IMG/VR virus record: IMGVR_UViG_3300042401_002002
Strand: one strand, 5' to 3'
Length of the DNA stretch: 64,000 nt
DNA from: a virus
Lineage: Duplodnaviria > Heunggongvirae > Uroviricota > Caudoviricetes
The position numbers were made by a program, and so were the translations under genes. The notes under the pieces were generated by a model that did no database searches, had not been told where the DNA came from, and was given only the letters and a program-made list of their open reading frames with translations. Below are positions 3,713-44,944 of this stretch, one piece after another (the first letter of the stretch is position 1; each line of letters starts with the position of its first letter).

Positions 3713-4586
3713 ATTTCGTAAAAATAGTTATCGAATCAGATAGAAATCTTTTGTTGGTTAATATCCATTGGTACCAAAAATTATTAAATTTATGATATTG
3801 GTAGTGTTTTATTATGTTAAGTTTCATCTTTTAAATGTTAAAATTTTATTGTAGTATTCTTTTGAACCTGTAAAATCTTCAATATACCACTCATCGTGAT
3901 TATTATCTAATAGTTGATTTCCAACAAACTTCCAGTTATTAGGTATTCTTATAAGTTTCATCTCCAATAAATAATTAATCGGTTTAATCTGAAAGATTCA
4001 TTTCTATTAAGTAATAATATTTCTAAACTACTACTATCATTTATACCTGATATATTCAAAAACCTTAATGTAAATTTTGTGTTTTTAAGTTTCATCTTGG
4101 AAATGTTATTAATTTGTTATGCTTAGTATTATCTATAAGTTCACTAAGACACCAATTTTCAGTTAAATTTTGGAAAACATCTTTTTTCTCGCCAACAAAT
4201 TTCCACTTATGATTAGTTATATTAAGTTTCATCTTGATAACGATATAAGTTGATTATAAAACATTTTATAATCTGTAATAGTTTGAATAAAACTTCTTCC
4301 ATCACTATATATAATATCGAATTTAGTATAAAATTTCTCTCTTTTAAGTTTCATCTCCAGTAAATATAAATTCTATTATGTACTTTATTATTTAAATCAT
4401 AATTAGGTTGAAACTCATTAAACCAATCTTTATTAAATCTGGTTGAATTATTTAGTTGTATTTTCATCTTAGTAATGTTATTATTGTATCATACAAACCA
4501 ATTGTTATTAATTTTTCATACGTAATATAGCCTACTGAAACATTACAGACGAGTTTTAAATTTATATTTGTTCTTACCAATTTCAT
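3711..4586 (-). repeat. MKL microgene array 1a (7 ORFs)
   Basis: ORFs 3711-3827, 3824-3961, 3958-4095, 4092-4232, 4229-4354, 4351-4467, 4464-4586, chained by ATGA overlaps; e.g. MKLIRIPNNWKFVG...YNKILTFKR and MKLNITNHKWKFVG...HNKLITFPR. Confidence 0.9.
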
Positions 4587-5143
4587 TTCAATATCTTTTT
4601 AATTTCATTAAAACTAAACGCTGGTGATACATCTGTGTAATTTAAACCAATGTTTGCTCTACAGAAGATACCTTCATACATTTCAACGTTATCTATTGGG
4701 AATATATGTGAAACACAATCACGTTTTATATTGTGTTTAGTTAGTAATTCTTTTAGTAAAACTCTCAATGTAGAATATTGTTCTTTTGTGTAGTTATGCC
4801 ACAAAGTTTGGTCCATGTATTTCTTTCTGAATACTTCATCACTTGGTACCAATACATTATACCAGTTTTCAAAAGTATCATTATCAACTTCTTTCAACCA
4901 ACCTAGATTTTCTAAACAAATTGTTATGTTATAACTATCAATTTTATTAATACCTGTAATCTTGTTATGAAATTTAGTATCCATAAATTGCGTTAAAACA
5001 CCTTCTCTGTTGATTATATAGTGTGGTTGAATAACTTCATGTTGCAAAGATAATCTGTCCGTGTAGTCATGTTCTTTCATCAAAGAATTGATTAACATAA
5101 TTCTATCCTTTGGTGTTTCTTTGGTTGTTATTTCTGGTTTCAT
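4583..5143 (-). CDS. N-acetylmuramoyl-L-alanine amidase-like protein (Amidase_2/PGRP fold)
   Basis: HYIINREG, ITICLEN, YTKEQY and DVSP motifs. Confidence 0.75.
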   Translation of the reverse strand: MKPEITTKETPKDRIMLINSLMKEHDYTDRLSLQHEVIQPHYIINREGVLTQFMDTKFHNKITGINKIDSYNITICLENLGWLKEVDNDTFENWYNVLVPSDEVFRKKYMDQTLWHNYTKEQYSTLRVLLKELLTKHNIKRDCVSHIFPIDNVEMYEGIFCRANIGLNYTDVSPAFSFNEIKKILK

Positions 5144-5584
5144 CTTGTAAAGGTTATTAGTACATCATTCCACTTATAGTTAATTATAGTTTTTAAACTA
5201 TAATAACCATCTGAATAATTAATATTATTAGTAGTTATTAATTTAGCTATAACTCTGTTTCTTATGTAAAGTTTCATCTTTTTAAAATTGTAATTACATT
5301 AATAAAGGAAGAATATGTTTGTATTATTTCTTCTATTGTCCAAGTTCTTATATTAGAAACATTACCAATTGAATATCCGTAATAATTAAAATCCTCGTTA
5401 GATTTATCATGTTTAGAAATATCATGTATTGTAAGTTTCATGTTAAGTTATAATATCTTGTTTCATCTTTTATAAATATAACTAATTTATTTCTATGTTC
5501 CCAATTATGATTTTTCCATTCTCTAGTTAATACTAACGTATTAATATGAAAATAATGTCCAGTATTTAATATTTTAAGTTTCAT
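5140..5584 (-). repeat. MKL microgene array 1b (3 ORFs)
   Basis: ORFs 5140-5277 (MKLYIRNR...NDVLITFTR), 5274-5441 (MKLTIHD...NVITILKR), 5438-5584 (MKLKILNTG...). Confidence 0.85.
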
Positions 5585-6024
5585 ATCTTATTTCTTTTAA
5601 GTCTTCTAGCACTAACTTCTTTTTGTGTTGTTGCAAAGGTAACATTTTTTTTCCATTTACAAACATATTCTTTATTTATTCTTGTAATTTCTTTTTCATT
5701 TGGTAATGTTACTGTAACTGGTTCTTCTTTTATAACAGCCATAATACCATATATTCTACAAGCTTTTCTTATTTTTTTAAGATAAACAAAATGTATCTCT
5801 GTTCTATGGTATTCATTATCTATAATATAACCTTTACTTTTTAAACCTTTGATATTACCGTTTTTATAGTATTCAGTTATAAATTCAACACCTATTTTAT
5901 ATATTGATGTTAATTTAACTTTTTTGGTGTGTATTTTTTTATTTTCTTTATAACGTATGGTTATTACTATATTCTCATTCTCATCCCATTTGATTGGATG
6001 ATTAACTTTGACTCTTTTATACAT
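5581..6024 (-). CDS. basic hypothetical protein
   Basis: 147 aa ORF; first gene of the unit that carries array 1. Confidence 0.55.
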   Translation of the reverse strand: MYKRVKVNHPIKWDENENIVITIRYKENKKIHTKKVKLTSIYKIGVEFITEYYKNGNIKGLKSKGYIIDNEYHRTEIHFVYLKKIRKACRIYGIMAVIKEEPVTVTLPNEKEITRINKEYVCKWKKNVTFATTQKEVSARRLKRNKI

Positions 6025-6099
6025 ATTTATAATGATTATTTTTATTAATTACAAAATTAATATTATTTTTAATTTAAACAAATAATTTTGTTGATTTAT

Positions 6100-6125
6100 T
6101 GAAACCTTTTATTTAGATTTGCGTT
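6100..6125 (+). promoter_or_regulatory. composite promoter TGAAAC-N16-CGTT containing TAGATTTG
   Basis: One of seven similar copies, each shortly upstream of a gene start. Confidence 0.65.
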
Positions 6126-9373: not shown

Positions 9374-10360
9374 ATGAAAAAAATATTATTTATGTTGTTT
9401 GTTATCCTAGGGATAAGCTTACAAAATGTTATTGCACAAAATGATAGTGTTGTGTTGCCTGATTATATGTATAAATATGAATTTAAACATTATAAAGAAA
9501 AACAATATACAAATCATAGATTAAAAACTAAAAATGAGTATAGTTATGATGAAAAATTGGGGCGAACAGTAATGAAATATTATTATACTATAGATAATAA
9601 AAAACCTGTAAGAGTTGAGAATACCGTTTCATATAATAACACATGTAATTGGTGGTATATAAAGCAGTCTATGGTTTATTCAATTGAAAGTAATATAGTT
9701 GGGAGTTATTGTATTAATGATGATGAATGTATTATTTTTGTTAAAACAATGGAGTTTTATAAATTTAGGTATTCTGATAGTTCCATAACCTATGTCGGTG
9801 ATTTGTCTGAATCAGGTTTATTTAATGAAACAATTAATTATAATCGTAATGAGACAATTAAAGAAGTTGAAGATGTAATCAATAAAAACCCTAATAGTGG
9901 GCAACCATCTAGTGAAACTCTTGAAATTTATTACAAGTTTCGTGGTGTAAGAAATATTCAAATAGGTAGAATGGAGTCAGGGAATTTAACATATATTGAT
10001 GGTGTTTGGTTTTTATCATTTCAATATTATGATTTTACTAAACCGCTTAATGATGGTACTGAAATATTACTTAGGAGTATTGATAATATGAAAACTTGGA
10101 CTAGGAGTAAAGTTTATTTAAATTATATGTATAAGCAGTATGATGTAAATTTGAAAAAATTTATACCTTTCTTATTAACTTTTGAAAATAATGATGGTCA
10201 TTTGACAAATATATATAAAATTAATAACGTTATTTATTTTAGTGACATAGAAAATGTTATTTACAAATCTGTTGATAACGGTAACATATTTAAGTTATAT
10301 AAAATTTTCAAACCGTTCCCTACACCTGTAGTGCCAACTTTTGAGAATACAAATCATTAA
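9374..10360 (+). CDS. secreted protein with Asp-box (BNR)-like motifs
   Basis: Sec-type signal MKKILFMLFVILGISLQNVIA-Q; SxDxxxTW-like boxes SIDNMKTW and SVDNGNIF. Confidence 0.6.
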   Translation: MKKILFMLFVILGISLQNVIAQNDSVVLPDYMYKYEFKHYKEKQYTNHRLKTKNEYSYDEKLGRTVMKYYYTIDNKKPVRVENTVSYNNTCNWWYIKQSMVYSIESNIVGSYCINDDECIIFVKTMEFYKFRYSDSSITYVGDLSESGLFNETINYNRNETIKEVEDVINKNPNSGQPSSETLEIYYKFRGVRNIQIGRMESGNLTYIDGVWFLSFQYYDFTKPLNDGTEILLRSIDNMKTWTRSKVYLNYMYKQYDVNLKKFIPFLLTFENNDGHLTNIYKINNVIYFSDIENVIYKSVDNGNIFKLYKIFKPFPTPVVPTFENTNH

Positions 10361-14225: not shown

Positions 14226-14543
14226 ATGCTTTTAGATTTAGAAAAAGAACAACAATTAGCTTTCAATAGATTAAAGAAAGCTTACGCTGATTGTAAAAAA
14301 TTAAAAGTTGAATTGGTTAATCAGTATGGTACATTACATGCATATAACGGTAAGTTAATTGTAGATTTTGGGGATGATGAAATAAAACCTAGAGGTCATT
14401 CAGTTTATTATACTGATGTTATTGATAAGTTTATCGGTAATAATAATATTATATCCAATATTGACCCAGGTAGAGCTGATGATGAGGATTTGTGGATGTT
14501 TGGTTTATCTGATAAAGGTTTAGAAATTTACGAAAATGAATAA
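14226..14543 (+). CDS. hypothetical protein
   Basis: 105 aa ORF preceded by TAAGTTTG. Confidence 0.55.
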   Translation: MLLDLEKEQQLAFNRLKKAYADCKKLKVELVNQYGTLHAYNGKLIVDFGDDEIKPRGHSVYYTDVIDKFIGNNNIISNIDPGRADDEDLWMFGLSDKGLEIYENE

Positions 14544-14892
14544 AACAAAAGTAATAATCGCTGGTACAAGAACGTTTGATAATTATCAACTTCTTAAAAC
14601 CAAATGTAATGAAATATTAAAAGATTTCAATAACATAGAAATAGTTTCCGGAACTGCTAAAGGTGGTGATATTTTAGGTGAGCAATACGCAAAAGAAATG
14701 GGTTTTGATTTAAAATTATTTAAACCTGATTGGAGTGGGTTAGGCAGAAAAGCTGGTCCTCTTAGAAATATTGAAATGGGTGATTACGCTGATGTTTTGA
14801 TTGCTTTCTGGGATAATATTTCAGGTGGGACAAAACACATGATTACTTACGCACAAAGTAAAGGTTTAAAAGTTCATGTTATAAATTATTAA
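14536..14892 (+). CDS. SLOG family protein (DUF2493/YspA-like)
   Basis: VIIAGTRTF, IVSGTAKGGD..GE, AGPLRN..M, AFWD..S.GT.HMI motifs. Confidence 0.85.
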   Translation: MNKTKVIIAGTRTFDNYQLLKTKCNEILKDFNNIEIVSGTAKGGDILGEQYAKEMGFDLKLFKPDWSGLGRKAGPLRNIEMGDYADVLIAFWDNISGGTKHMITYAQSKGLKVHVINY

Positions 14893-15088: not shown

Positions 15089-18000
15089 TTATAACTTATT
15101 ATTGTTGTTTAAAAACTCATTTAGTAATTGAACTGTTTCATTTGAATTTTGACTTAAACTTGTTTTGTCTTCAACTTCTTTAAGTAACTGAACCAATTCG
15201 TTATTTGTTTTATTTGCTCTATACAAATATTTTTCTTTTAACTGAAATGGTTCTTGTTCACCTTGTGGTGCAGCTCCACCTGCTGGGTTATTACCTGCAT
15301 CCATTGGTCCACCCATAGCATCGGCTCCTGGTTCAGCAGGTTGTTCACCGTTAACTTGTGCTGGGTCTAATGATGAAGTAATAATACCTCTTTTAATGTA
15401 TTCCTCTAAATCATTGAAAATACCTGATTTTTTAAGAATTAAACCAGCATTTTTAATTTCATCACCAACAACATTTTCAATCATTTGTTGTTTAATATCA
15501 TCAAGTATTTCATCAGCTGATAAACCAAAAATAAGTTTTTTAGCATTTGTTTCTGACATAGGTTTTAAACCTGTTTCATTTGATGTCGTTAATTTAACAT
15601 ATAAATCAACTTTTTGTGTAAATGCTTCAATTTTAAGTATTTCTGATTGTGTAGATGGGTTATTTAAAGTTAATTTATAATCTCTAATATCATCATCACT
15701 GTAACCTAATAAGAATAAATGTATTAATGCAATTTTGTTTAATTCTTGAATCATTGCATTTTGTATTCTCATTACTTTTCTAGAAAATACAATATCTGTT
15801 TGAGCATTATTGTCACCACCACCTTCTCCAGAACCTGAGAAATTAAGTCTGTTTTTAGGTACACCTAAACCTGTAAATAAGTTATCTCTTAAGTATTCAA
15901 TATCTGCAATTTTATCTAAATTATCAGCACCTTCTAAAATATCAATTGGTGAAGGGTCACCAGCGTTTTTAACTGCAACAAATATATCTTCAACACCACT
16001 TGCTGGACTATATTTGTAATTAATTTGTCCTGTTGCAGGGTCAACTATTTGTGATTTTTTAAAATTTGAAATAGTTTGACGCATAAACATTGGGATATCT
16101 GCTGGGTCCATATTACCAGTAGGAACTTTAACTACTTTAACCCTTGCAGCATTAGTTGCTCTATATACTAATTGAGCATCTTCACTCATTTTTAACATTC
16201 TGTAATACATTCTAACAGGTGCCAGTACAGATGTACCATAAGGTAACGTATTTTCATCACCTAATAACCTAAAATGTGCCACTTGGAAGTTAGTATATTC
16301 TTGTCCACCTAATTGCCAAATAAATTTAGTTGTTGGTTTTCCATTTATAATTTTTTCTTGTCTTTCTATTTCAGATGTAGGTAATTGTTTAACATTTACA
16401 ACACCTTTATCTGCTTCAGTCATTACAAATAAAAAATTATCACCAAACTTGCAGTTTGACAAAAATACACCAGAAGTTCTTGAGTATGAACCGTTTATGT
16501 CTTTACCTAGTACTGGAAAATTATGTCTATCATGTTCACCGTTAGGACCAACAGCTTCTAAACAGTAAACATCCGAAGTTTCTTCTAATTTAACAACGGA
16601 AACTACTTTATGGTTTACAACCTTAGTTTTACCTAAAAAAATTGCTTTAGCTCTTATATAATCTTTATCTAATATTAAAGTTGGTTTAATAGATAAAACA
16701 TAATCAAAATAATTTAACTCAGTTTTTCTCTTTAAAACATTTGTTAGTGTTGCATGGTTTATAGATTTAATAATATCTTTTCTTAAAGTATAAGTTTCTT
16801 TAAAAAGATTTATAAATTCAGTATCAATTTTTAATAATTGAGCTAGTTTATTTATACCAACATAATTTTCGTTACTTGCTATAATATTAGTTATATAGTT
16901 TAAACAACTATCAGATATTTCTATTGTCATACCTTTTTTTGTTTTCGCAACAAATTCTTCATTAGACCAATTCTCTAACATTTTTTTTGTACGGATTTCA
17001 TTATGTTCACTGTGTAAATCACTATTATTATATTCATTAAAATATTTTGGATAAATACCTGTCATTTCTTTTGACATTCTTTGTCTACGAGCATCAGATG
17101 TTAGATATTTGTGGATACCTTCTAAACGTTTTTTTGTAATTTCAGGTGAATGTAATACTTGTTTACAAAGGTCTGTGTGTATTTTAAAATGTTCACTGTT
17201 AGTTAATCTTTGTAAATTATGTGGGTGATTATTTAGTTTATTAAAATCAATGTGATGTGTGTCAAAACGTTCATTGACAGTTTTTTCATATTCCAAATCA
17301 CGCACACATTCATGTGCTACCATACGATGAGTAAACTTATATTTACCAGTACTTGGGTTAAATACTTTTTCATAACCACCTATTTGGTCTTGTTTTTTAT
17401 TACTTTTTTTGGTGTAATAAGGCATTAACGATTGACCAGGTGTTAATTCATCAGCTCTTTTAAATGAACCGTTTCTTAACATGTATTCATGGTCTGGTGT
17501 TGTATCTATATATGTACCATCATCTAACGTTACACGATATAATTCACTATTTTTTCTAGTTAAGTCACACCAAACAATTTTACTAGGTACAATAGCGTGT
17601 GTCTTATCCTGAATAGAATAAGACCAGATTTCTTCACCTAATTTAATTCTATCTGATAATTCTTTTATTGTACACTCAGTACCATCTAATAATGGTATCA
17701 TTGAATTCTCTCTAATTGGAGTGTTTCTCACCCAGAAAGGTAGATTAGTATTAATATCTAAAATCTCATAAAATAAGTATTCTAAATCTTCTTTTAGTCT
17801 ATTATTGTTAGAATAAATGTTTAACATTTGACCTCTATCACCTATCGTTGTGGCTTCTTCAGCTAAAACATTTAAAGCTTGAGCTATGATAGGGTATGAT
17901 TCCATCATTTTATATTCAACATAAGCAGGTAATCTTAAAGCATTGGCTTGAACTGCTTGCATATCATTTTGTTGGATGATATGTGAATGTTGTTTATAAA

Positions 18001-18172
18001 GATATTGCGTTTGTTGGTATTCTAATTTTTTATCTTCTAATTCTTCTTTAGAAGATGCTGTAATAAGTTCTTTTTTTTCTATTGGTGTAACAAATTGATT
18101 ATTATCATGTTTATTAACCTTTCCTGTTAATCTATTATAGGCTGATTCCCATAAACTAGTTTTTTCTGCCAT
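15089..18172 (-). CDS. portal protein (T4 gp20-like) with intein
   Basis: P.IAQAL...AEEAT, WVRNT/CKFGDNF, HFRL..D...PYG.SVL, EDA..VYR and DIEYLRD.LF..L.VP motifs; about 605 aa after splicing. Confidence 0.88.
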   Translation of the reverse strand: MAEKTSLWESAYNRLTGKVNKHDNNQFVTPIEKKELITASSKEELEDKKLEYQQTQYLYKQHSHIIQQNDMQAVQANALRLPAYVEYKMMESYPIIAQALNVLAEEATTIGDRGQMLNIYSNNNRLKEDLEYLFYEILDINTNLPFWVRNTPIRENSMIPLLDGTECTIKELSDRIKLGEEIWSYSIQDKTHAIVPSKIVWCDLTRKNSELYRVTLDDGTYIDTTPDHEYMLRNGSFKRADELTPGQSLMPYYTKKSNKKQDQIGGYEKVFNPSTGKYKFTHRMVAHECVRDLEYEKTVNERFDTHHIDFNKLNNHPHNLQRLTNSEHFKIHTDLCKQVLHSPEITKKRLEGIHKYLTSDARRQRMSKEMTGIYPKYFNEYNNSDLHSEHNEIRTKKMLENWSNEEFVAKTKKGMTIEISDSCLNYITNIIASNENYVGINKLAQLLKIDTEFINLFKETYTLRKDIIKSINHATLTNVLKRKTELNYFDYVLSIKPTLILDKDYIRAKAIFLGKTKVVNHKVVSVVKLEETSDVYCLEAVGPNGEHDRHNFPVLGKDINGSYSRTSGVFLSNCKFGDNFLFVMTEADKGVVNVKQLPTSEIERQEKIINGKPTTKFIWQLGGQEYTNFQVAHFRLLGDENTLPYGTSVLAPVRMYYRMLKMSEDAQLVYRATNAARVKVVKVPTGNMDPADIPMFMRQTISNFKKSQIVDPATGQINYKYSPASGVEDIFVAVKNAGDPSPIDILEGADNLDKIADIEYLRDNLFTGLGVPKNRLNFSGSGEGGGDNNAQTDIVFSRKVMRIQNAMIQELNKIALIHLFLLGYSDDDIRDYKLTLNNPSTQSEILKIEAFTQKVDLYVKLTTSNETGLKPMSETNAKKLIFGLSADEILDDIKQQMIENVVGDEIKNAGLILKKSGIFNDLEEYIKRGIITSSLDPAQVNGEQPAEPGADAMGGPMDAGNNPAGGAAPQGEQEPFQLKEKYLYRANKTNNELVQLLKEVEDKTSLSQNSNETVQLLNEFLNNNNKL
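16454..17719 (-). mobile_element. 422 aa intein with HNH homing endonuclease, atypical Pro1
   Basis: Block A PIRENSMIPLLDG, block B TTPDH, HNH DTHHIDFNKLNN, block F DVYCLEA, terminal LSN followed by Cys+1. Confidence 0.85.
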
Positions 18173-28526: not shown

Positions 28527-28763
28527 TTACAAATGTCTGTTGCTGATTAATTGTTCCAAGTCTCTATCAAAATTAATAAACATTTCTGGGTCAGAAGATT
28601 CAATTATCATTTCTTTAAATCTTCTGATTACTAATCTATCAAACTGTTTTTGAGTTTGTTCCCTTTCTTGTTCTAATTGTTCATCGTATTGTTCTAAAAA
28701 CGTTTTCATTGTTGTATAAACTTTTATTTCAACAAATCTACAAAATAAAAAAACTCTTACCAA
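28527..28763 (-). CDS. hypothetical protein (true start probably MKTFL at 28709)
   Basis: TAGATTTG lies inside the called 5' end, favouring the downstream ATG. Confidence 0.5.
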   Translation of the reverse strand: MVRVFLFCRFVEIKVYTTMKTFLEQYDEQLEQEREQTQKQFDRLVIRRFKEMIIESSDPEMFINFDRDLEQLISNRHL

Positions 28764-28796
28764 ATATTGATAAGAGTTTTTTTATTAAAATTTATT

Positions 28797-30157: not shown

Positions 30158-30273
30158 TTGTAATTTAGGTTTTAAATTAATGTTAATTAAAATGGGTTAG
30201 ATTTAATATCTAACCCATTTGTAAGTGCAAATATAATAGTTTAAATTAATAAACCAAAATTATTTCGTTATTT

Positions 30274-33274: not shown

Positions 33275-34876
33275 TTATCTTGAAAAAGTCACTAAAGAAT
33301 TAAAATAAAAATTTCGTTTAGCATGATTTATTTTTTCTTCTATTGTTAAGTCATAAGGTTTATTAAAACCTGCAAGTAGATAACTGAACGCCTTAAGTGA
33401 TATATCAATGTTTGATATGTTTAATTTCATCTTTTTAAAATAAATAAGTAATTATAGTTTGGTTTGTACATTGTAATAGCGTTTTTAATCATTTGTTCTG
33501 GAGTTGTTTTTCCAAAACCAAATTTTCTTGGAATACCACAAGCTAAATACATTTCATTTGGGTCGATGAGTGGTGAATATTTTAATATATTTAATTTCAT
33601 CTTTCGTAAATATAAATTCTGTTACAATTTTTTAAATAAAAAAACGAAAGTTCTTTATTTTCAACAAAATAAGTAAACCAAACTGAATGTTTAAACCTAC
33701 TTCCCGTTCTAACTATTGAAAGTTTCATCTTAAATAAATTATTAGTTTGTTAGTTAATAATTTAATATATTTATCATGTCCATTTATTTTACGAACCAAT
33801 CCTGTATTTATAATTTTATTAGTATGTTGGAACATTTTTAATCTCATCTTAAATAAATTATTACCTTGTTTCTAAATCCTTTTAAACCGTAATCGTCCTT
33901 TATTCTTTGGTAAGAAACTGAATCAATAAACTTTACATTACTTCCGTTGTTAATTATTTTAAGTTTCATCTTTTGTAGATTAAAATTTGGTTTTTATATT
34001 CAAACATATATTTATATCCGATTTGACTTCTATAATAAAACATAGATTCTTTAAATTTAACAGCTACTATTTTATCTATTACCAATTTCATCTTTCGTAA
34101 ATGTAAATTTTGTTTAAATCGTATTTATTTAAATCGTAATCATTTTGTAAACATTCGTTTATTGGTGAATATTTAAACTTGCTGTAATAGTAACTCATGT
34201 TTAGTACTTTTATTTTCATTTCTTGTAAATATTTATTTCGTTTGAATAAAGTTTAATAAACATATTTGGATTATTTATTAAATGAAATAATTCACTTGTT
34301 ATAAACCAGTCATATTGGTAAATTGAATATTTAAGTTTCATCTCAAATAAATTATTATTTCATTTAAATCATATTCTTCAATAGGAAACATTAGTAAAGG
34401 TTCAATGTCGTTATTTAAAATTAAATATCCTAATATAACTGACTCATTTATTTTACTATCTGATTGTCTTATTTCTAATTTCATCTTTCTAAAATGTATA
34501 ATTTGTTTGTCATTTCAAATATTTGTTGGTAATTATTTTCAACAAGATGTCCGTAAATAGTTGTTATGTTAAAGGGAAAATCATCATGATTACTTATTTC
34601 TAATTTCATTTTTGTAAGTGTAAATTGAATTTATATTATATTCATTATGTTTAACATAATTGTTTGAACCAATTGTAATTAATCTAAACCAAGATGTTGA
34701 TGTAAATTTTAGATGAGTATTTTCGTATAAATTAAGTTTCATCTTTTGTAAATTTGTAGTTGATTTATCCAGTTTTCTATATTAATCCAATTACAATCTT
34801 CTTTTAAGAATAGAATATAAATACTTAATTCATTAAAATGACTAATTGCTTTATTACTAAAAACTACAAGTTTCAT
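33275..34876 (-). repeat. MKL microgene array 5 (12 ORFs)
   Basis: Starts at 33430, 33600, 33728, 33847, 33969, 34091, 34219, 34341, 34484, 34609, 34742, 34876; nearly all end N-x-[IL]-x-I-[YFL]-x-R; TAGATTTG promoter element about 20 nt upstream of the first. Confidence 0.9.
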
Positions 34877-34947
34877 TAGTTATTTGTTTATAATAACAAA
34901 TCTACAATTTTTATTTAATTTAACCAAACTATTTACAATAAAATATC

Positions 34948-35707: not shown

Positions 35708-36001
35708 ATGTTTATTTATTTAATTTCAAACCAAAACGGTTTTTATAAGATTGGTGTTTCTAAAAACCCTGATAAAAGAATAAAATCAATGGAAACAGGG
35801 AATCCGGATGATTTGATTATCCTTTATAGGTATACTACTAAACAAGCACATACAATAGAAAGAATTTTACATAGAATGTTTGAATCTTATAGAGTTAAAT
35901 TAGAGTGGTTTGAGTTACCTATTTATGAAGTACGTAATTTTTTATACAATTGTTCTAAAATAGAATGTAATCTAAATTATTTGGAAGAAAATAAAATTTA
36001 A
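35708..36001 (+). CDS. GIY-YIG family protein (T5orf172/MUG113-like)
   Basis: IYLI...YKIG.S.NP..R...METGNP, E..LH..F...R...EWF. Confidence 0.85.
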   Translation: MFIYLISNQNGFYKIGVSKNPDKRIKSMETGNPDDLIILYRYTTKQAHTIERILHRMFESYRVKLEWFELPIYEVRNFLYNCSKIECNLNYLEENKI

Positions 36002-36005: not shown

Positions 36006-36305
36006 ATGAAAATTCAAAAAGTTAAAGGATTTAGGTTAAACAAACATTATTTTAAACTGTATTTGTTTGAAATTTTAATCATGTTAACGGTAGATTTAGG
36101 TTGTTACATAAGTTTAATTACTTTAGCTTATGATAAAAACTTTGGTTTGTTTTTTAAGAACAAAAGACAGAAATCTTATGGAATAGAATTTAATTTTGTT
36201 GACAGAAATACAGTTAACGAGAAAATGTATATATCTGTTTATGAATATAATAATATTCAAAATAACAAAACTAAAGTTATTAATAAGTTATTTCCTATTA
36301 AATAG
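36006..36305 (+). CDS. hypothetical protein
   Basis: 99 aa ORF following 35708..36001. Confidence 0.4.
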   Translation: MKIQKVKGFRLNKHYFKLYLFEILIMLTVDLGCYISLITLAYDKNFGLFFKNKRQKSYGIEFNFVDRNTVNEKMYISVYEYNNIQNNKTKVINKLFPIK

Positions 36306-37294
36306 AAATATCTGGTTATAAACAATAAAATAATCCTTAGCTTCTTCGTTATTCTGAATAATAGAATAAATCCAGTAATCTTTTAGGCTTGCATAAACAT
36401 AAGGTTCTATTTGAAGTTTCATTTTTTTATTTGCGTTTAAGTAAAAATATTTTATTTGTTATTATACCGAAATATTTAGCATTATTATCATTTTGAATTA
36501 TTGAATAAAAGTAGTGATTTTCATCAAATATGTTATATTGGTCTTTAAGAAATATAAGTTTCATTTTTTTAATATCATTAAAAGGTTGCAATCAAATTCA
36601 TCTACGTTTAACCATGTATAGGAACCACTTATACTATAATGATATTCAAAGTCAATACATAGATTATAATAAAAGTTACCGACCTTGAATTCATTAGGTG
36701 TTGAACCAGGTCGGTTTCCTTGTGTTGGATAGATAATTTTAAGTTTCATCTTTCTAATATTAATAAACTGTTATAAAACCCTTTGATATTTGTAAAGGTT
36801 AGAATCCCTAAATATTCAAGTTGAATAGATGTTGTTTCAAAACCTATAAATTTGTAATCTTCTGTTACAGTTGTATCTAATTTCATCTTTTATAAATTAA
36901 TATTTCGTTTCTACTACCAGAAATTAATTCGTAATAAATATCTAAATCAAACAACATTATTTTATTACTATCTGATTCACTTCTTTTAAAATACAAATGT
37001 TCACCTTTCGATTTAATATTATAAAATATATCTAATTTCATCTTTTATAAATATATATGTTATTGCGCCAATCTTCAAAAGTATCTCTTTTTAACTTAAA
37101 TAAAACTTGATAGATATAACCTCTATCGAATTCTATTGATTTACCGTAGTTATAAATTTTTAATTTCATCTTTTATAAATTATGATTTCATTGTACCAAC
37201 CAACAAAATTATCATTTTCCAAGCCAAATAGAACTCGATAGATATAACTTCTACCGAATTCCAAATGTGTTTCTCTGTCAACAAGTAATATCAT
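36288..37294 (-). repeat. MKL microgene array 6 (7 ORFs)
   Basis: ORFs 36288-36422, 36427-36564, 36561-36749, 36746-36886, 36883-37041, 37038-37169, 37166-37294. Confidence 0.9.
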
Positions 37295-39024
37295 TTCCCC
37301 TCAAAAGTGTTGATAATATCCTTCGGGTCCACCACGATTTGTCTGAAGAATCTAGGTTCGTTAATTATTTTACATTCAATTCCACATGAAATAATAACAA
37401 CTTTTTTGAAACCTGATAAATCTAATGTATCACAATAACCATCGGTTAAGATTAATAAGTTTTCTCTACCAAAGTTTTGTTTTACGTAATTAATACCTGG
37501 CATTAATTCGGTACCACCGTAAATATCGTGTAGTTGTTTAAGATTTCTAATATCTTTTTGACTTTTGATTTTTACTATGTTTTTTTCATTAACTACAGTA
37601 TCACAGAAGACTAGATTACCAACATAATTATCTTTTATACAGAAACCTAATATAGGTTCAACGCAACCACCCATACTTCCACTAACATCACACACAATAT
37701 TTAATGACTTAATATCATAAAACCTACCTTTAACAATAAATTCACTATCACTGTGTTTTTTGTTGTTTTTCTTGTAAGTTCTGTTTAATGAACCACTACC
37801 TTTTAATTTATTTACTGTACTAAAGATAACCTTTAAGAAGTTTTCTTTTTGTGGTGTGATTTGTTTCATTAATTCATCTACAAACCCTGTATCAACACCT
37901 CTTGCTTTACAATAAGCATCAATGTTTCGCATCCTATCTGCAATTTCTTCTGGTGATATTTCATCTTCATCACTTGATGTAAAATCATCTAATGATTGGA
38001 AGTTTTTACCACCTCCACCACTTGGGTTGTTTTTGTCAACTAAATATCTTAGTGCATATAAATCTAATGTACCTGTATATCTATCATCTTGTACATAAGT
38101 GATATTGTCATTATTTTTAATAATGTTTAGGTAGTCGTGTGATTTAATATGAACTTTATAAGTTTGATTATCTTTTAAGATTCTATCTCTAACAACATCA
38201 TAACCTATTGTATCACATTCACTCTGTAGTTTTTTAATATGTTCATCAAAAAATTGATACAGTTGTTCAAATACTAAATTAGAGTTATTTTCACCTTTAT
38301 CATAACCAGCTTCTAAAAAAGGTTCTAAATGAATACCTGACCCACATTTTTCCCAGTTTGATGGGAATATATAATGTTTATACGGGTTTTCTTCGTCAGG
38401 ATATGATTTTGGGTCATAATTAGGGTTAATTTCTAATTCTTTTATTATTTCACCCATTATTCTAATATTATTAGATAATTTATCAAATCTTTTCTTTGAT
38501 TCTTGGTTATCTGGGTTTTTTTGAAGATAATTAGATAATGTTTCTAATTTATCAGTTGATTGTAATAAATCAAGTTTAATTGTATCAAGTGGGGAGTCTT
38601 GAAATATCAAACTAATATGGTCACGTAATGCAACTTGGAACCTTTCAGCTCTATATTGGTATTGTATATTGTAGTTGATAATAGCATCAGTAACAATATT
38701 ACATTTACTTCTTTGAACCTCATTTGTAAAACCATACAGACGTTGTAAGTGTGCTGATTTGATGTGCATTAACTCATGGAAAATTAAATATGTAATTTCT
38801 GAGTTTTCTAATTTATTAATGAAATGTTCATTATAAGAAAATAAGAAATTTTTAAACTTAGCAGATACACAAGCAGTATCAATATCGGTTCTTTCTTTGA
38901 ACTCAATTAAGGTTGTGAAATAACCAAAATAACGATGTGCTGTTAATGATGAATGTGTTAATAAATCAATAATAGCGTTTGTTAATTTAGCATTTTTAAT
39001 TTTTACTGGAGATTCGTATGACAT
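37291..39024 (-). CDS. metallopeptidase plus vWA domain protein (DUF2201-like)
   Basis: HELMH zinc motif, N...D..IN, MIDAS DVSGSM, GGT, LTDG. Confidence 0.85.
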   Translation of the reverse strand: MSYESPVKIKNAKLTNAIIDLLTHSSLTAHRYFGYFTTLIEFKERTDIDTACVSAKFKNFLFSYNEHFINKLENSEITYLIFHELMHIKSAHLQRLYGFTNEVQRSKCNIVTDAIINYNIQYQYRAERFQVALRDHISLIFQDSPLDTIKLDLLQSTDKLETLSNYLQKNPDNQESKKRFDKLSNNIRIMGEIIKELEINPNYDPKSYPDEENPYKHYIFPSNWEKCGSGIHLEPFLEAGYDKGENNSNLVFEQLYQFFDEHIKKLQSECDTIGYDVVRDRILKDNQTYKVHIKSHDYLNIIKNNDNITYVQDDRYTGTLDLYALRYLVDKNNPSGGGGKNFQSLDDFTSSDEDEISPEEIADRMRNIDAYCKARGVDTGFVDELMKQITPQKENFLKVIFSTVNKLKGSGSLNRTYKKNNKKHSDSEFIVKGRFYDIKSLNIVCDVSGSMGGCVEPILGFCIKDNYVGNLVFCDTVVNEKNIVKIKSQKDIRNLKQLHDIYGGTELMPGINYVKQNFGRENLLILTDGYCDTLDLSGFKKVVIISCGIECKIINEPRFFRQIVVDPKDIINTFEGK

Positions 39025-39358: not shown

Positions 39359-39599
39359 CTTTTATTTCTTTAGTAATCGGTTTACTATTTTGAAATAAAT
39401 GTTTTGTTATTTTAGCGTTGTTAGGTACATATAATTTATAACCAACATAAAACCAAATTATTATTTCTGTTATTCCAGTTAAACCTCGTAAGGTTGTGTC
39501 TGTATGCCTAATATTGGTAGCTAAATAACATAAATATTCTGATAGTGCAACTATCAAAGGATACAGTAGCATCCAAAGTACGAAGGGTAGGTTTTTCAT
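39294..39599 (-). CDS. membrane protein
   Basis: Two hydrophobic segments. Confidence 0.55.
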   Translation of the reverse strand: MKNLPFVLWMLLYPLIVALSEYLCYLATNIRHTDTTLRGLTGITEIIIWFYVGYKLYVPNNAKITKHLFQNSKPITKEIKDAIEETSKRIAKNHSKFKSRL

Positions 39600-39730
39600 C
39601 TTTTATAAATTAATATATTGTTCGTCCAATTTTCAGAATTAATCCAATTTTCATTAGTCTTAAGAAATTTAGTATATAACTTAGTGTTGTAAAGGTATAT
39701 ACCATCAGTATTGTTTATGTCTAGTTTCAT
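39596..39730 (-). CDS. MKL microprotein (singleton)
   Basis: MKLDINNTDG...NWINSENWTNNILIYKR, ATGA-coupled on both sides. Confidence 0.8.
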   Translation of the reverse strand: MKLDINNTDGIYLYNTKLYTKFLKTNENWINSENWTNNILIYKR

Positions 39731-40055: not shown

Positions 40056-40175
40056 TTATCTTGCAAATATATTAATTTGGTTGAGATAATTTAAGTCAAC
40101 TAATCCTTGAATATGATTGTTGCGTAAAACAACATAATTTTTAACCTGTTTTACACGAAATATTTTTAATTTCAT
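40056..40175 (-). CDS. MKL microprotein (singleton)
   Basis: MKLKIFRVKQV...LNQINIFAR, directly after the promoter at 40196-40221. Confidence 0.8.
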   Translation of the reverse strand: MKLKIFRVKQVKNYVVLRNNHIQGLVDLNYLNQINIFAR

Positions 40176-40195
40176 CTTTCCAATATTTTATATTC

Positions 40196-40221
40196 AACGC
40201 AAACCTAACTAAAAGGTTTCA
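40196..40221 (-). promoter_or_regulatory. composite promoter TGAAAC-N16-CGTT
   Basis: tgaaaccttttagttaggtttgcgtt on the minus strand. Confidence 0.65.
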
Positions 40222-40275
40222 ATAAAACAAAAATAATTGTTGGAAATCTTTTAAATAACCAACAATTATTATTTT

Positions 40276-40401
40276 TTATCTAACAAAAATGCCTAACCAA
40301 TTACAATGATTTTTAGTAAGATTGGTAGTTCCTAAAACAGTGCTTTTATAAAAAACTGTTGAAGTGAACGAAATTCCAAAGTCTGATTTTTTAAGTTTCA
40401 T
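40276..40401 (-). CDS. MKL microprotein (singleton)
   Basis: MKLKKSDFG...CNWLGIFVR. Confidence 0.75.
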   Translation of the reverse strand: MKLKKSDFGISFTSTVFYKSTVLGTTNLTKNHCNWLGIFVR

Positions 40402-40404: not shown

Positions 40405-43400
40405 TCAATTAATACTAATCAAACTACAACCTTTTTCATCAGCTGTTACAGTTAAACTGTAATCAACATTTAATTCATCACTGTAAGCGTGTTCAATGAT
40501 GACTATTTTCTCAATTTTTTCTTTGATTTTATGAATTAACTCAAAGAAATTAGTTACTGAATCACCAACTAGTTTACCTGTTACCTCATCTAAGAATAAA
40601 AAGTTACCTAATGATTTATTATTAATTGACCTTAATGCTAATCTTAATATAATCGAAATAAAGGTCCTTTCCATTCCGGAGCCACCAATTACATTTTGTA
40701 TAGCTGTATTATCATTGTAACTATACATTTTTAATGTCATATTTTCATCAAAATAAACATTAAAGTTACATAAATCATTGATTAAATTATGTATTTCATT
40801 GTTGATGTCTTCTCTCATATTTAATAAGAGTAATTTAGGTACACCATCTCTGTGAATACACTCAACATAACAAGTATTAATTTGTTCTTCAAGTTCTTGT
40901 TCTTGAAATTTACTTATTCTGTCATTAATTGTTTTAATGTTATTTGTTAAGGTTGTAATAACATTATTTTCAATAAAACTAACATTTGCTTTAATTCCAT
41001 TAACTTCATCTTGTAAAGTTTTTAATCTAGCATCGTAAGTATCTATTACCTTTTGAACCTTTTCATTTTCAATAACTTTATTGTTTTCAATAACAACTCT
41101 ATCATAGGTATTTTTATTATTACCTATTTTCAAGTCAACATTTTCAATTAATAAAGGAATGTTGTTCTTTTGGTTAACTAATTGTTGTCTTTTATCGAAT
41201 TCTTCTTTTTCTTTTTCGATTTCAACAATTAATTCCTGGTTTTCTGACATCTTAACAGATGTATCCTCTAAATCTTGTTTGAAACGTATGATATTAGCTT
41301 CAAGTAACTTAATATCATTTTCAAAACCAACCTTTTTACTCTCTTCATTTTTTATTTTGTTTAAAGATTCTGAAATTTTATCCTTTAATGATAATATTTC
41401 TTTGGTATCTTGTTCCTTAATATTATTTTCAAAACATTTAATAGTTTCTAATATACTAAGAATCTCAGGTGTATTATTTTTAGATTCCTCTAACTGGTTT
41501 ATTTCAGTTTTTTTATCATTAATCTTATTTTGAATGATAACTAACTGAGCTTTACCTAATTCTCTGTCACAAGATGGGCAAATTTTGCTTTTATCTAAAA
41601 TTTCTATCTCAGATAAAATATTATTAATTTTAGAATCAATCTGTTTATTAATTAAACCAATTTCTTGTTCTTTTAACTTGATTTTAGATTCTAAATTACC
41701 TAATTCTTTAGTAATATCAGTTTTAAAAGAATCAATAGACCTGTTTAGAAGTAATATATTACCATTGCAAACAGCAATATCATTTCTAACTGAATCAACC
41801 TTATTAGTTGTTTCTTTAATATTCGATTTTACCCCAATAAACTCGTTCTGTAATGAATCTTTTATACCACATAAGGTATTATATCGTTCAATGTTATAAG
41901 TGTCTCTTAGAATTGATATTTTTTGTTCAAGTTCTTTTTGAGAAACAAAATAACTATCTTTTTGTTCAATTAAAACATTTAATTCTTCTTTAAGTTTGTC
42001 AAGTGAAGTGTTAGCTAAGGCTTTGTCAATAGGATGTAACTTTTTAAGTTCATTTTCCTTGTACTCTTGACCTGTTTTTAACCTTTTCTCTCTATCAACT
42101 AAAGAATCATTAAGTTCTTTGATTTTGTCTTTGTTGGTTTGAATTTCATCTTTTATTAATTGAATTTTAACCAATTCATCTTCTACTTTAAGAACTATTT
42201 TTTCTTCTTTTTTATAAAGTTCTTTTTTGTAGTCTTTGTATTCAGCTAATTTTCTTTCAAAAACATCTAAACCTGAATATTTTAAAATACTATCCATAAA
42301 TACTGATTCATCCATTGATAATAAATTATTCAATGTATCAGCATTAACTAAATATAAAGCTAAGAAATCATCAAATGAACCAATTATATTTGATAAATAT
42401 TCCTGGTTTTTAGATTTTTCTTCATCAGTTTGGTTGATTATTTCACCATTACTATCAATAAGATTGATTTTTAATGTTGTTGGACAAGCTGTAATCTTAG
42501 TTTTACTTCTATCCCACTTTCTTTCAGTTCTTCTAACTAAAGAAAATCTAGTTTCATCAACATTTATAATAGCACCTGATTCACAGTAATCTAAATCACG
42601 TTTGTTATTAATAAATCTGTTATCACCATTGGTTTCTCTTTTTAGAGTTTCTAATGTTTTACCATGTAATAAATATAAAATACCTGAAAGTAAATTGGTC
42701 TTACCAACTGCATTTTCACCCATAATTTGATACAAACCGTTGTTTTTATCCCAGTTCATTTCAAATCTATCAGCATGTGAACGATAGTTATCAATATAAA
42801 AAGATTCAATTCTCCAATCTTTTCTTTCAATACTATTAGATGCCCCTAATCTTTTATTAATTTTATTATCTATCTCAATAACTTTGTCAATAAATTCAGG
42901 TTCATAATTTTTATTTAACAAATGTTGTTTAAATACTTGTTGCTGTACATCGTAATTGGTAATATTAACCAAAGATTTTCTAACAAAATCATTCTCAACA
43001 ATTTTATTGTTTCTTATTTTGTTTTCTTTCTTTTTAACTTCAACAACGGTTGGGTATTTGGATTGTATAAATAACTTAATCTTTCTCCAATTTTCACTTG
43101 TAAAATTAATAGCATCATCGGTCCAATCAACTTTTACGTGAGTATATTTCTTAACCTCAGAAGATTTAAGTTTAATATTTAAATTATCGTAATCAATTGT
43201 TTCATCAACACCAGTACCTTTTAAGTAATAGTTAATGTAACTATATTCATTTTCAATCTCAATAAGTTCATGTTTTATGTTTTTAACATCTGAGATGTTC
43301 CATAAAATAAAGCCATGTTTATCAACAGATTCACCATAATTATTTTGATATAATGATGATGGATATGCACCTTTAATTGATTTATCTTTATTATGAAATA

Positions 43401-43983
43401 ACTGATATTGATGTATGTCACCCATTAATAATAAATCACCTTCAAAGTCTTCTAAACTAACATATTTAGAATCTTCAAATTCTTGACCAAAAAATGTTCT
43501 TGAACCATTAATAGGGTCATGAAATAAATCAATAACTAATTTATCTGTTGGTTTGGTAAAACCAGGTTCTAAAACCCAAGGTGATGTCTTGTCGCTATGA
43601 TGCCATACTGACCAAATTACATTTTCATCATTGTAAAATGTGGTCGCATCGTAATATTTAACCTTTGGGTTGTTAATCAAATTGATAACAGTATTTACTG
43701 AATCAACACGATTAACAGCTTTCATGTTAAGGTCATGGTTACCTAATGTAACTCGAACTTCAGCAATTTTAGATAGTTCATTCAAGAACCAACCACCAAG
43801 TTTTTTGGTTTCATTGTTTACTTTATTAAAATCATGAAATAAATCACCAACTATAACTATTCTGTCAGGTTTAACCTCGATTAGTTTTTTGATTGTGTTT
43901 TCAAGAACTTGTTTTTGTCTTGCTTGATACTCAAGTTTATTCATTAAATGAATATCTGAGAGGTGTGCTATGGTTTTTATCAT
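40405..43983 (-). CDS. fused SbcD-SbcC (Mre11-Rad50, gp47-gp46-like) nuclease-ATPase
   Basis: Phosphoesterase SDIH, GDLFH, GNHD, GDIH; Walker A GENAVGKT; coiled coil with CPSC hook; SGMER signature; FLDE; EH. Confidence 0.92.
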   Translation of the reverse strand: MIKTIAHLSDIHLMNKLEYQARQKQVLENTIKKLIEVKPDRIVIVGDLFHDFNKVNNETKKLGGWFLNELSKIAEVRVTLGNHDLNMKAVNRVDSVNTVINLINNPKVKYYDATTFYNDENVIWSVWHHSDKTSPWVLEPGFTKPTDKLVIDLFHDPINGSRTFFGQEFEDSKYVSLEDFEGDLLLMGDIHQYQLFHNKDKSIKGAYPSSLYQNNYGESVDKHGFILWNISDVKNIKHELIEIENEYSYINYYLKGTGVDETIDYDNLNIKLKSSEVKKYTHVKVDWTDDAINFTSENWRKIKLFIQSKYPTVVEVKKKENKIRNNKIVENDFVRKSLVNITNYDVQQQVFKQHLLNKNYEPEFIDKVIEIDNKINKRLGASNSIERKDWRIESFYIDNYRSHADRFEMNWDKNNGLYQIMGENAVGKTNLLSGILYLLHGKTLETLKRETNGDNRFINNKRDLDYCESGAIINVDETRFSLVRRTERKWDRSKTKITACPTTLKINLIDSNGEIINQTDEEKSKNQEYLSNIIGSFDDFLALYLVNADTLNNLLSMDESVFMDSILKYSGLDVFERKLAEYKDYKKELYKKEEKIVLKVEDELVKIQLIKDEIQTNKDKIKELNDSLVDREKRLKTGQEYKENELKKLHPIDKALANTSLDKLKEELNVLIEQKDSYFVSQKELEQKISILRDTYNIERYNTLCGIKDSLQNEFIGVKSNIKETTNKVDSVRNDIAVCNGNILLLNRSIDSFKTDITKELGNLESKIKLKEQEIGLINKQIDSKINNILSEIEILDKSKICPSCDRELGKAQLVIIQNKINDKKTEINQLEESKNNTPEILSILETIKCFENNIKEQDTKEILSLKDKISESLNKIKNEESKKVGFENDIKLLEANIIRFKQDLEDTSVKMSENQELIVEIEKEKEEFDKRQQLVNQKNNIPLLIENVDLKIGNNKNTYDRVVIENNKVIENEKVQKVIDTYDARLKTLQDEVNGIKANVSFIENNVITTLTNNIKTINDRISKFQEQELEEQINTCYVECIHRDGVPKLLLLNMREDINNEIHNLINDLCNFNVYFDENMTLKMYSYNDNTAIQNVIGGSGMERTFISIILRLALRSINNKSLGNFLFLDEVTGKLVGDSVTNFFELIHKIKEKIEKIVIIEHAYSDELNVDYSLTVTADEKGCSLISIN

Positions 43984-44944
43984 TTTCTTGGAAATATTAT
44001 TAGTGCGTTGTGGTTGGATTTAGTAGTAAAGTTTTTTATACGTAACATTTCGATTTTATAATCTAGACCACTTAATAAACCTGTTATGTATAATTTCATC
44101 TTTTTGTTATTATTAATCGGTTGTAGTGAATTTCGGGTATATATCTTTCAGTTTTATTATTAATTCTATGAAAAACTCCACTATTATTGAATAGTACAAA
44201 GTTTGAGTTAGTTATTTTTAATTTCATCTTCTTTCAAAAATTAATAACATGTTATGATTTCTTTTGTTTTGTAAAGTGAATTCAGATGTTATCTCACGTT
44301 TCCAGTTAAACGTTTTCAATAAAGCAGATATATCTAATTTCATCTTTTAAATTTTTTATATAATTTATATAAAATATAACTTTTTAGTGAAAATCCAAAT
44401 ATAACTAAAATTATTATAAAATAACTATTATCTATTTGGAATATTAGATAGATATCTAATAAGCAAGCCACTAATAAGAATATTGATAACATAATACCTA
44501 GTTTCTTAAAGAAATTGAATTCTAATCTTTTGATTGTTTCTATTGTCATCTTGTGTAAATTGTTATGTAATTAATAAAATTATTTATATTTTTACCTGGT
44601 TTATGACTACCTTTCATAAAATTATAATCAGGACTTGTTAAGAAAAAGCTATTGGGTTTACTTATATTTAATTTCATCTTTTGTAAATTATTATTATCTG
44701 TCAAGAATTAATAAACGATTATAATTTATTTTTAAATCACGTCCAGAAGTTATCATGTAATAAGGTGTTATATCACCTAAATAAGGTTTCCAAATTTTTA
44801 ATTTCATCTTTTAAATATTACCATTGCGTTACTCCATCTTTTTATCTTAATTTTACTTTTTTGTTTTCCAACTAAAACATGATAATAAAGATTATCACTA
44901 ACAAAATTAACTTTATACGTACTATTATCTATTTCAAGTTTCAT
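43980..44944 (-). repeat. MKL microgene array 8 (6 ORFs around a 69 aa membrane ORF)
   Basis: ORFs 43980-44099, 44096-44227, 44224-44343, 44546-44677, 44694-44807, 44804-44944. Confidence 0.88.
44340..44549 (-). CDS. small two-helix membrane protein
   Basis: Two hydrophobic segments; ATGA-coupled inside the array. Confidence 0.5.
   Translation of the reverse strand: MTIETIKRLEFNFFKKLGIMLSIFLLVACLLDIYLIFQIDNSYFIIILVIFGFSLKSYILYKLYKKFKR

Follow-up and report, generated by a model that had tools for sequence, protein, structure and literature searches.

How does a phage genome come to carry 66 very small genes, joined end to end by overlapping stop and start codons and interleaved with ordinary enzyme genes, and are these microgenes exchanged as cassettes? 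The question is raised by a 64-kb stretch of Caudoviricetes DNA (IMG/VR record IMGVR_UViG_3300042401_002002), here called the window. It is part of a genome of about 265–308 kb, and all window-level results cover these 64 kb. A preliminary description of the window had proposed that the microgenes behave as cassettes at ATGA stop/start sites, spread by an integron-like or selfish system. The first part of this proposal is borne out: judged from related contigs, cassette-like turnover is real. The turnover probably arises by general recombination at a short coding junction, with no dedicated recombinase required, and with the products filtered by selection.

All of the microgenes lie on the minus strand. 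They encode proteins of 35–62 residues (median 45) with a median pI of 9.7, and together occupy 9.1 kb, approximately 14% of the window. They form 17 contiguous runs, of which two (44546-44677 and 44694-44944) are 16 nt apart and are merged here, to leave 16. The family extends from 3711 to 48971, rather than from 3824 to 44944 as first described. Alignment of the 66 units gives the consensus MKLxI..F..Y..NxLxIxxR, with terminal motifs MKLxI and NxLxIYxR, and with F and Y as conserved internal positions. The family hidden Markov model (HMM) matches 65 frames in a six-frame translation of the window, on the minus strand only. A profile search of 1.84 billion representative proteins returned only 24 matches, 41–47 residues long and all from the same family, several of them diverged orthologues from other samples. 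When the HMM was compared with larger proteins, no significant unit-like domain was found. The 245-residue protein encoded at 48974-49711 and its 406-residue counterpart in the relative L200 do end in a unit-like motif, LNQII-I/V-FGE; since the HMM match is not significant, no relationship is claimed.

To the extent that sequence alone can tell, the units are genuine genes, evolving fast under purifying selection. Over 16 orthologous pairs of units, dN/dS is 0.41 (0.28 for the ends and 0.46 for the cores), with values of 0.03–0.18 for neighbouring conventional genes. Family members with intact frames are found in five relative lineages. A different reading would treat the junction as a non-coding DNA or RNA signal with incidental reading frames, or the whole chain as a polyprotein made by frameshifting. 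The strong periodicity of the chains would suit this, as would the fact that some of the codon choice at the junction reflects a nucleotide-level force. Against it, reading frames are intact in 66/66 units despite lengths that vary from 35 to 62 codons, dN/dS is below 1, the internal F and Y are conserved, and conserved residues are encoded by alternating synonymous codons (CTT 32 times and TTA 24 times at Leu3; AAT 28 times and AAC 21 times at Asn-8). Nor is there a slippery heptamer in the right phase at the junction, for which reason a polyprotein made by -1 frameshifting was rejected. We give this reading scarcely any credence.

An AlphaFold2 model, generated from the alignment of paralogues, has a mean pLDDT of 78 and places a strand at each terminus, together with two short helices. 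Searches with this model gave no match with Z >= 2 among 48,161 PDB representatives, and none at E <= 0.001 in BFVD. The product is thus predicted to be a basic microprotein of about 45 residues without a recognisable fold.

The junctions between units are highly regular. Among pairs of adjacent units, 44/52 have a 4-nt ATGA overlap. The same overlap leads from a unit to a conventional gene in 5/11 cases and from a conventional gene to a unit in 6/11, but is found in none of the 25 pairs of conventional genes (0/25); the difference between mixed pairs (11/22) and conventional pairs is significant (Fisher p = 4e-5). The minus strand has 55 such overlaps in total. Since they occur only where a unit is involved, the overlap belongs to the family rather than characterising the genome as a whole. 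On the minus strand there are 54 copies of the sequence AGATGAAA, as against a single copy on the plus strand. The junction consensus quoted earlier was about right. Strong conservation of the DNA spans only positions -3 to +8 around the ATG, with a weaker signal from -23 to +14.

All of the junctions named in the preliminary description (11/11) are exact 4-nt overlaps. The stop of a microgene overlaps the start of the amidase gene (5143), the dihydrofolate reductase (DHFR) gene (28222, beginning ATGAAACTT as claimed), a 101-aa gene (39599), the SbcCD-like gene (43983) and a 69-aa gene (44549). The start of a microgene overlaps the stop of the amidase gene (4583), a 147-aa gene (5581), the DHFR gene (27704), a 577-aa gene (37291), a 99-aa gene (39727) and the 69-aa gene (44340). 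The single unit at 39596-39730 does lie between unrelated genes, being flanked by the 99-aa and 101-aa genes.

Alignment of related phages had been set beforehand as the test of cassette behaviour. Relatives were found as metagenomic contigs, representing five further lineages, by exact-sequence look-ups of the profile matches and of homologues of the DHFR and the 577-aa protein. In L197 and L377 the DHFR is 96% identical to that of the window, and in L198 and L199 the conventional DNA has about 95% nucleotide identity; L196 and L200 are further relatives of the arrays. The DHFR of L373 is 77% identical. L374-L376 and L378, which belong to one 55-kb scaffold, have a DHFR that is 64% identical and a 577-aa protein that is 83% identical. 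L379 and L380 have a 577-aa protein that is 47% identical and a diverged form of the family (MKKIEI...IYKK, with the junction AAATGA). L192-L195 were left out as uninformative, since they are 99.9–100% identical to the window and come from the same strain. Other searches added nothing. Two junction-pattern scans of IMG/VR gave chance matches only, with no microgene chains; anchors from the ribonucleotide reductase small subunit and a 794-aa protein found only chance matches or unrelated phages in IMG/VR, again with no microgene chains; in JGI metagenome contigs the 577-aa anchor found nothing, and a junction-pattern scan gave chance matches among the matches listed; and a word-based protein search recovered only the window's own protein.

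Neither the order of the units nor their content is constant among these relatives. They differ by the insertion, deletion, replacement and reordering of whole units, and the changes keep to the register of the junctions. The window is separated from L196, L197, L198, L200, L373, L377 and L378 by at least ten such events, with alignment blocks ending within about 30 nt of a junction ATG; gains and losses were polarised only roughly. The best-compared array is that at 33275-34876, with 12 units, for which L196, L198, L373 and L374 are available. Here L198 holds two extra units, 250 nt between identical copies of ATGAAACTTAAA, between units 34338 and 34216. Unit 33725-33847, which is flanked by a 27-nt repeat, is missing in L196, L198 and L373. 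In place of the window's 57-aa unit at 33427-33600, L196 has an unrelated unit of 39 aa, and in L373 the orthologues of units 33844 and 34216 are in inverted order.

Similar differences are seen elsewhere. In the region 47828-48971, which comprises an array of 7 units (47828-48742) and, after the 245-aa gene, a single unit (48840-48971), L200 lacks three units of the array and a 94-aa gene, but has three tandem paralogues of the single unit. Between the 794-aa gene and the SbcCD-like gene (43997-44929), L200 has one unit, as against six units and a membrane protein gene in the window. The array of 7 units at 36288-37294, downstream of the 577-aa gene, is one unit shorter in L197, which lacks 36427-36564. 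Upstream of DHFR (28219-28523) the window has 2 units, while relatives have 3 to 7 small genes: 3 in L374, 4 in L377 (with two more before a 60-aa gene) and 7 in L373 by an ORF scan (6 in the gene calls). The orthologue of unit 27424 is upstream of DHFR in L374 but downstream of it in the window and in L373, and the 5-unit array downstream of DHFR (26995-27707) has both orthologous and non-orthologous counterparts in L373, L374 and L377. Finally, the whole segment 39089-40231, which includes the singleton 39596-39730, is missing from L378. Translational coupling would be preserved in every variant. L374 and L375, two assemblies of one relative, differ by no indel, and by one internal point difference in 11.7 kb; this single-base difference, at L375:6204, falls in the stretch of a 43-aa unit that is intact in L374, and in L375 no ORF was called there.

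Whole units are not the only segments exchanged. Six orthologous units compared between the window and L198 have nucleotide identities of 99, 94, 97, 82, 78 and 100% (chi-square p = 5e-18), the extra pair of units in L198 falling between the second and third of them. In the cores of the two diverged units the raw synonymous difference reaches about 0.4, as against 0–0.04 in their neighbours, and the C-terminal motif is where the two sequences become identical again. On this evidence unit cores are replaced allelically by recombination, and have not merely diverged by fast protein evolution.

The conventional genes within the chains behave differently. DHFR (172 aa, 27704-28222) keeps an ATGA overlap at each end in relatives that are 96, 77 and 64% identical. 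The Amidase_2 gene (186 aa, 4583-5143) also has an overlap at each end in the window; in L378 the overlap at its start is kept, and its stop lies in an ATGA resembling a unit start, after which a TnpB element follows, while the flanking units differ. Because the overlaps are kept while the surrounding units turn over, these two enzyme genes are stable residents of the chains, and not recent targets of insertion; the suggestion that conventional genes serve as insertion targets is not supported. Their first codons drift towards a unit-type start (MKLI as against MNLI or MNII for DHFR; MKPEI as against MKLDYLNLFP for the amidase, of which about the first 10 codons differ between L378 and the window).

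The window contains 19 motifs of the form TTTG..TAnnTTTG, against 9.7 expected. Motifs of this host-type promoter lie just upstream of chain heads (34897-34928, 44969-45000, 40200-40231, 28733-28764 and 6052-6082), and there are none at the junctions. Shine-Dalgarno sequences are missing from the window genes. On the basis of these two features, and because the nearest named cellular homologues of its DHFR come from Bacteroidota, the host is probably a member of the Bacteroidota. Huber et al. (2019, PMC6728339) report that Shine-Dalgarno sequences are not used in Bacteroidetes, even where two genes overlap. Each chain would thus be a single operon, read by termination-reinitiation.

A related observation is that a repeated promoter-like element of about 32–35 nt (TTTG..TTGAAACC..TAGnTTTG) heads several operons, at 40200-40231 and 44969-45000 on the minus strand and 6087-6121 on the plus strand. 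The 85 nt around it (40161-40247) are 82% identical to L200 5152-5235, upstream of the single unit of L200. The element may be a second kind of boundary repeat, similar to the promoter-early stem-loop (PeSL) discussed below.

On the basis of these observations we propose the following mechanism, which we consider probable. Each chain would be transcribed from one host-type promoter, and a terminating ribosome would restart on the next unit at the ATGA overlap, as suits a host that makes no use of Shine-Dalgarno sequences. Since every unit has the same coding ends, MKLxI and NxLxIYxR, every junction carries the same 12–25 nt of DNA (approximately AAGATGAAAYTW, with weaker flanks). The general recombination and replication machinery of the phage, or template switching, could use this short homology when units of one genome exchange unequally; when relatives co-infect and cross, it would be used along with the longer homology that conserved units nearby provide. 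Selection would then purge those products that break reading frames or downstream coupling. The outcome would be the gain, loss, allelic replacement and reordering of units in register with the junctions, while conventional genes, among them those for DHFR, the amidase and the SbcCD-like protein, persist within the chains. Of this account, the anatomy, the coding status of the units, the register of the indels, the mosaicism and the conservation in relatives are observed, whereas reinitiation, the route of recombination and any role of the proteins are inferences.

A rival to this proposal is that selection does all the work: the termini would be kept for the fold and for reinitiation, breakpoints could fall anywhere, and only in-register products would survive. 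The bearing of the DNA at the junction on this question is mixed. Between orthologues, the ends of units and their cores have the same synonymous divergence (0.27 vs 0.30, p = 0.6), yet the ends show half as much amino-acid divergence as the cores. This indicates that the terminal peptides are conserved mainly as protein, as selection alone would have it, and the AlphaFold2 model duly places both termini in strands of one small fold. The last codon is AGA in 52/52 units, a bias that had been put forward for a test of constraint on the DNA. It is in fact to be expected (p = 0.075): only a codon with A as its last letter can take part in the overlap, and the genome uses AGA about 20 times as often as CGA. 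The second codon, Lys2, is AAA in 62/62, which is a slight enrichment (p = 2.5e-4). The idea of a constraint at DNA level is thus weakened by the equal synonymous divergence, the explained AGA and the alternation of codons at Leu3 and Asn-8. It retains some force from the rare synonymous codons CTT at Leu3 (p = 3e-13), ATA at Ile5 (p = 2e-12) and TAC at Tyr-3 (p = 0.002), all of which are strongly over-used and speak against selection on the protein alone. These codons point to some nucleotide-level force, which could be homogenisation by exchange or the initiation context. Further points against a purely selective origin are the drift of the DHFR and amidase starts towards the unit type, the identical junction repeats that flank indels (a 12-nt repeat for one indel, a 27-nt repeat for another), and the changes of order and non-homologous replacements, which are hard to obtain without exchange at common boundaries. 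We therefore regard selection alone as an unlikely explanation, though one to be taken seriously.

Several observations count against the proposed recombination at junctions. The identical run of DNA common to two junctions has a median of only 9 nt (95th percentile 15, maximum 24), as selection alone would lead one to expect. This is far below the approximately 100 bp of a PeSL, so that recombination at the junction may be inefficient; selection alone could also give the register. The ends of BLAST blocks are biased towards the conserved junctions, so that breakpoints are placed only to within about 15–40 nt. None of the new units seen in relatives has a close copy in the window. The over-used codons are only loosely explained by the proposal. 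Lastly, Pfam scans found no integrase, resolvase or reverse transcriptase among the 30 larger ORFs of the window, which covers 64 kb of a genome of about 265–308 kb, and the conclusion that no dedicated enzyme is needed has the same limited scope.

The same scans bear on the integron-like system that had been proposed, in which a site-specific recombinase encoded outside the window would excise units as small circles and insert them at the junction. The units do share with such a system the lack of promoters of their own, a single orientation, their diversity, a common promoter upstream, and presence or absence in register among relatives; moreover, serine recombinase genes adjoin arrays in the relative L374/L378. 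Yet no hairpin or palindrome of the attC type was found in the ten junction-centred stretches of 71 nt that were folded (-0.7 to -4.2 kcal/mol; z -1.3 to +1.1 relative to shuffled sequences), and the replacement of cores, with breakpoints inside coding motifs and graded divergence, fits homologous exchange better. The resolvase genes of the relative adjoin TnpB genes, an arrangement that resembles IS607-type elements, and one of these pairs breaks up a chain and has a truncated unit beside it. An integron-like system thus seems improbable. The earlier statement that the window has no recombinase holds for integrases, resolvases and reverse transcriptases, and needs the qualification that two TnpB genes, three genes for GIY-YIG-type endonucleases and two inteins are present in it. 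A diversity-generating retroelement was also considered, and was rejected on the absence of a reverse transcriptase from the window and on the differing lengths of the units.

The two resolvase and TnpB pairs just mentioned, which are IS607-like, are at L374:7414-9423 and L374:79-1753 (the scaffold is ERZ28593570 scaffold_271, and the elements are also in L378), beside or inside chains. The truncated unit left at the edge of one pair is 33 aa long.

It had also been suggested that the units are selfish, which would mean that they multiply at a cost to the phage by placing copies of themselves in further ATGA sites. The sheer size of the family, and the occurrence of singletons between unrelated genes, would be in keeping with this. 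However, no two units in the window have more than 50% identity in their cores, and there is accordingly no sign of copy-and-paste spread. The units are under purifying selection, several of them keep their position across relatives, and no mobility gene was found for them in the window, although inverted repeats and target duplications were not searched for. We consider selfish spread very improbable. An analysis of nearest paralogues by position was dropped, as the cores of paralogues are too diverged for it to be meaningful.

A bolder version of the exchange proposal is that the junction has evolved as a portable exchange module. The units would then form a shared, integron-like pool of interchangeable microprotein cassettes, able to change position within a genome or pass from one co-infecting phage to another, perhaps in the form of circles of about 130 bp. 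A cassette would be expressed immediately at its new site, since it would inherit translation from the gene upstream. If this were true, the phage would have a library of early microproteins that could be combined at will, with host takeover and counter-defence as examples of its use. We offer it as a speculation that is more probably wrong than right by some way.

Returning to recombination at the coding junction, the closest known case is the shuffling mediated by PeSLs in T4-type phages, whose hyperplastic regions recombine between repeated motifs (Arbiol et al. 2010, PMC2839356; Comeau et al. 2014, PMC4122927). A PeSL lies between genes and measures about 100 bp; it carries a sigma-70-type promoter as well as a terminator stem-loop, and each cassette thus brings its own transcription signals (PMC2839356, PMC4122927). 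Both cases concern T4-like phages, with hyperplastic regions of small genes without known homologues lying between core genes. In both, the insertions, deletions and replacements that distinguish close relatives are bounded by a short motif repeated at gene boundaries, the process can do without a dedicated recombinase, and the products stay expressible. The cassette behaviour in itself thus resembles a known system, which limits its novelty; the difference lies in a junction that is coding, overlapping and much shorter. It consists of approximately the last 9 and first 5 codons of neighbouring genes with their 4-nt stop/start overlap, or 12–25 nt of DNA, and has neither promoter nor stem-loop. 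What it would preserve is translational coupling, and not transcription signals.

Other known systems are less close. Integron cassettes also form arrays of small, promoterless, co-oriented and dissimilar cassettes behind one promoter, whose content varies among relatives; here there are neither folded sites at the ten junctions examined nor an IntI-type integrase in the window, one protein family is found throughout, and the boundaries are inside coding sequence. Coupling by termination and reinitiation at ATGA is known (PMC6728339), and the likeness extends to the 4-nt overlap, the co-directed genes and, as in Bacteroidetes, the lack of a Shine-Dalgarno sequence. The known cases are gene pairs or short operons, often encoding subunits of one complex, whereas here up to 12 paralogous microgenes follow one another, and nearly all of the overlaps involve a member of the family. 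Unlike MITEs and insertion-sequence repeats, the units have no near-identical dispersed copies (terminal inverted repeats and target-site duplications were not searched for).

Tandem families that evolve by birth and death through unequal crossing-over have a varying copy number, diverged paralogues and a partly conserved order, as here, and also pseudogenes, represented here by a split unit, a fused unit and a point-mutated unit. The units differ from such families in being only about 130 nt long, in lacking a spacer, in having only their termini in common, and in being interleaved with unrelated enzyme genes under the same coupling. The fused unit is L198:385-660, a 91-aa ORF at the head of the L198 counterpart of array 33275-34876, in which two units have apparently been joined in frame; the ATGA overlap is lost, and the start of the second unit is now an internal Met-Lys-Phe. 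A further irregular unit, 34590-34742, has no canonical end and extends 20 nt into the next unit, stopping at TAA, while its orthologues (in L198 and the profile match P0015) have the normal end motif and ATGA overlap.

The proposal would provide T4-type phages with a second route to shuffle small accessory genes while keeping them expressed, in which the boundary is a coding translational junction and not a cassette of promoter and terminator. It would also account for the survival and diversification of a microprotein family on this scale among essential enzyme genes, which are left undisturbed. Chains of proteins with fixed termini and a free core would be a natural scaffold for work on phage early proteins, and the system is relevant to reinitiation in hosts without Shine-Dalgarno sequences and to the turnover of orphan genes.

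The remaining features, all on the minus strand, complete the layout of the chains. The amidase chain is headed by the 147-aa gene (5581-6024), the stop of which overlaps the first microgene start and upstream of which is the promoter motif at 6052-6082. An array of 3 units (5140-5584), for which L378 has 5, leads from this gene to the amidase gene, downstream of which is an array of 7 (3711-4586) with six internal ATGA overlaps and a last unit ending in TAA. An array of 6 units is found at 24068-24856. The 12-unit array has its promoter motif at 34897-34928. The 577-aa gene (37291-39024), whose stop overlaps a microgene start, had been labelled as vWA; the domain found is DUF2201_N, metallopeptidase-like. 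The hyperplastic segment 39089-40231 contains, from its promoter motif at 40200-40231, a unit at 40056-40175, the 99-aa gene, the singleton, the 101-aa gene and a 67-aa gene.

The gene for the fused SbcD/SbcC-like protein (1192 aa, 40405-43983) is followed directly by a single microgene (40276-40401), with a probable orthologue in L378. The overlap of its start with a microgene stop is also found in L200, with a different unit. Upstream of it are an array of 3 units (43980-44343), the 69-aa gene (44340-44549), which encodes a predicted membrane protein, has an ATGA overlap at each end and is missing in L200, and three further units (44546-44944) with a promoter motif at 44969-45000.

A TnpB-only element of 1.41 kb (21483-22890), 91% identical to a copy at 58208-59616, lies inside a microgene. 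The N-terminal half of this unit (22891-22960) ends an array of 3 (22853-23282), and its C-terminal half (approximately 21417-21482), in frame and with the family motif and ATGA, lies just upstream of an array of 4 (20817-21420). The presence of the two halves on either side of the element implies that the two arrays were once one chain.

The smaller complement of units in the distant L379, a contig of 171 kb, is also of interest. Its units (951-1386, 9509-9655 and 14423-14578) are few, with the consensus M-K/R-K/I-I-E-I ... N-x-L-x-I-Y-K-K and AAATGA junctions. The family therefore predates its large expansion in the lineage of the window.

As to the phage itself, the window has a G+C content of 25%, and Pfam scans identify a T4 gp20-type portal gene with an intein, a class I ribonucleotide reductase and a family B DNA polymerase, as well as the fused SbcD/SbcC-like nuclease, DHFR, the Amidase_2 enzyme, two TnpB and three GIY-YIG-type endonucleases. 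The orphan-gene arrays separate the portal, polymerase, ribonucleotide reductase and SbcCD-like genes, and the relative L374 has a gp25-like gene. On the evidence of this gene content, and of contigs of 265 and 308 kb that encode window proteins, it is a T4-like jumbo phage. A search of a collection of phage records found no close relative; the closest portal matches there, from Microcystis phage Mel-JY01 and the Flavobacterium 'immuto' phages, are 33–35% identical.

The endonuclease genes are at 49845-51128, 62293-63435 and 35708-36001, the last being of the T5orf172 type, and the intein splicing domains are in the portal gene (15089-18172) and in the gene for the large subunit of ribonucleotide reductase (30274-32952). 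The ribonucleotide reductase genes differ between the window and two relatives at the same position, beside a conserved 61-aa gene. In the window (29078-32952) a large subunit of 892 aa, with an ATP-cone and the intein, is followed by a small subunit of 359 aa. In L196 (914-3607) a small subunit of 319 aa comes first and a large one of 575 aa second, and in L379 (14670-17984) the two genes encode 322 aa and then 775 aa. This looks like non-orthologous replacement among relatives.

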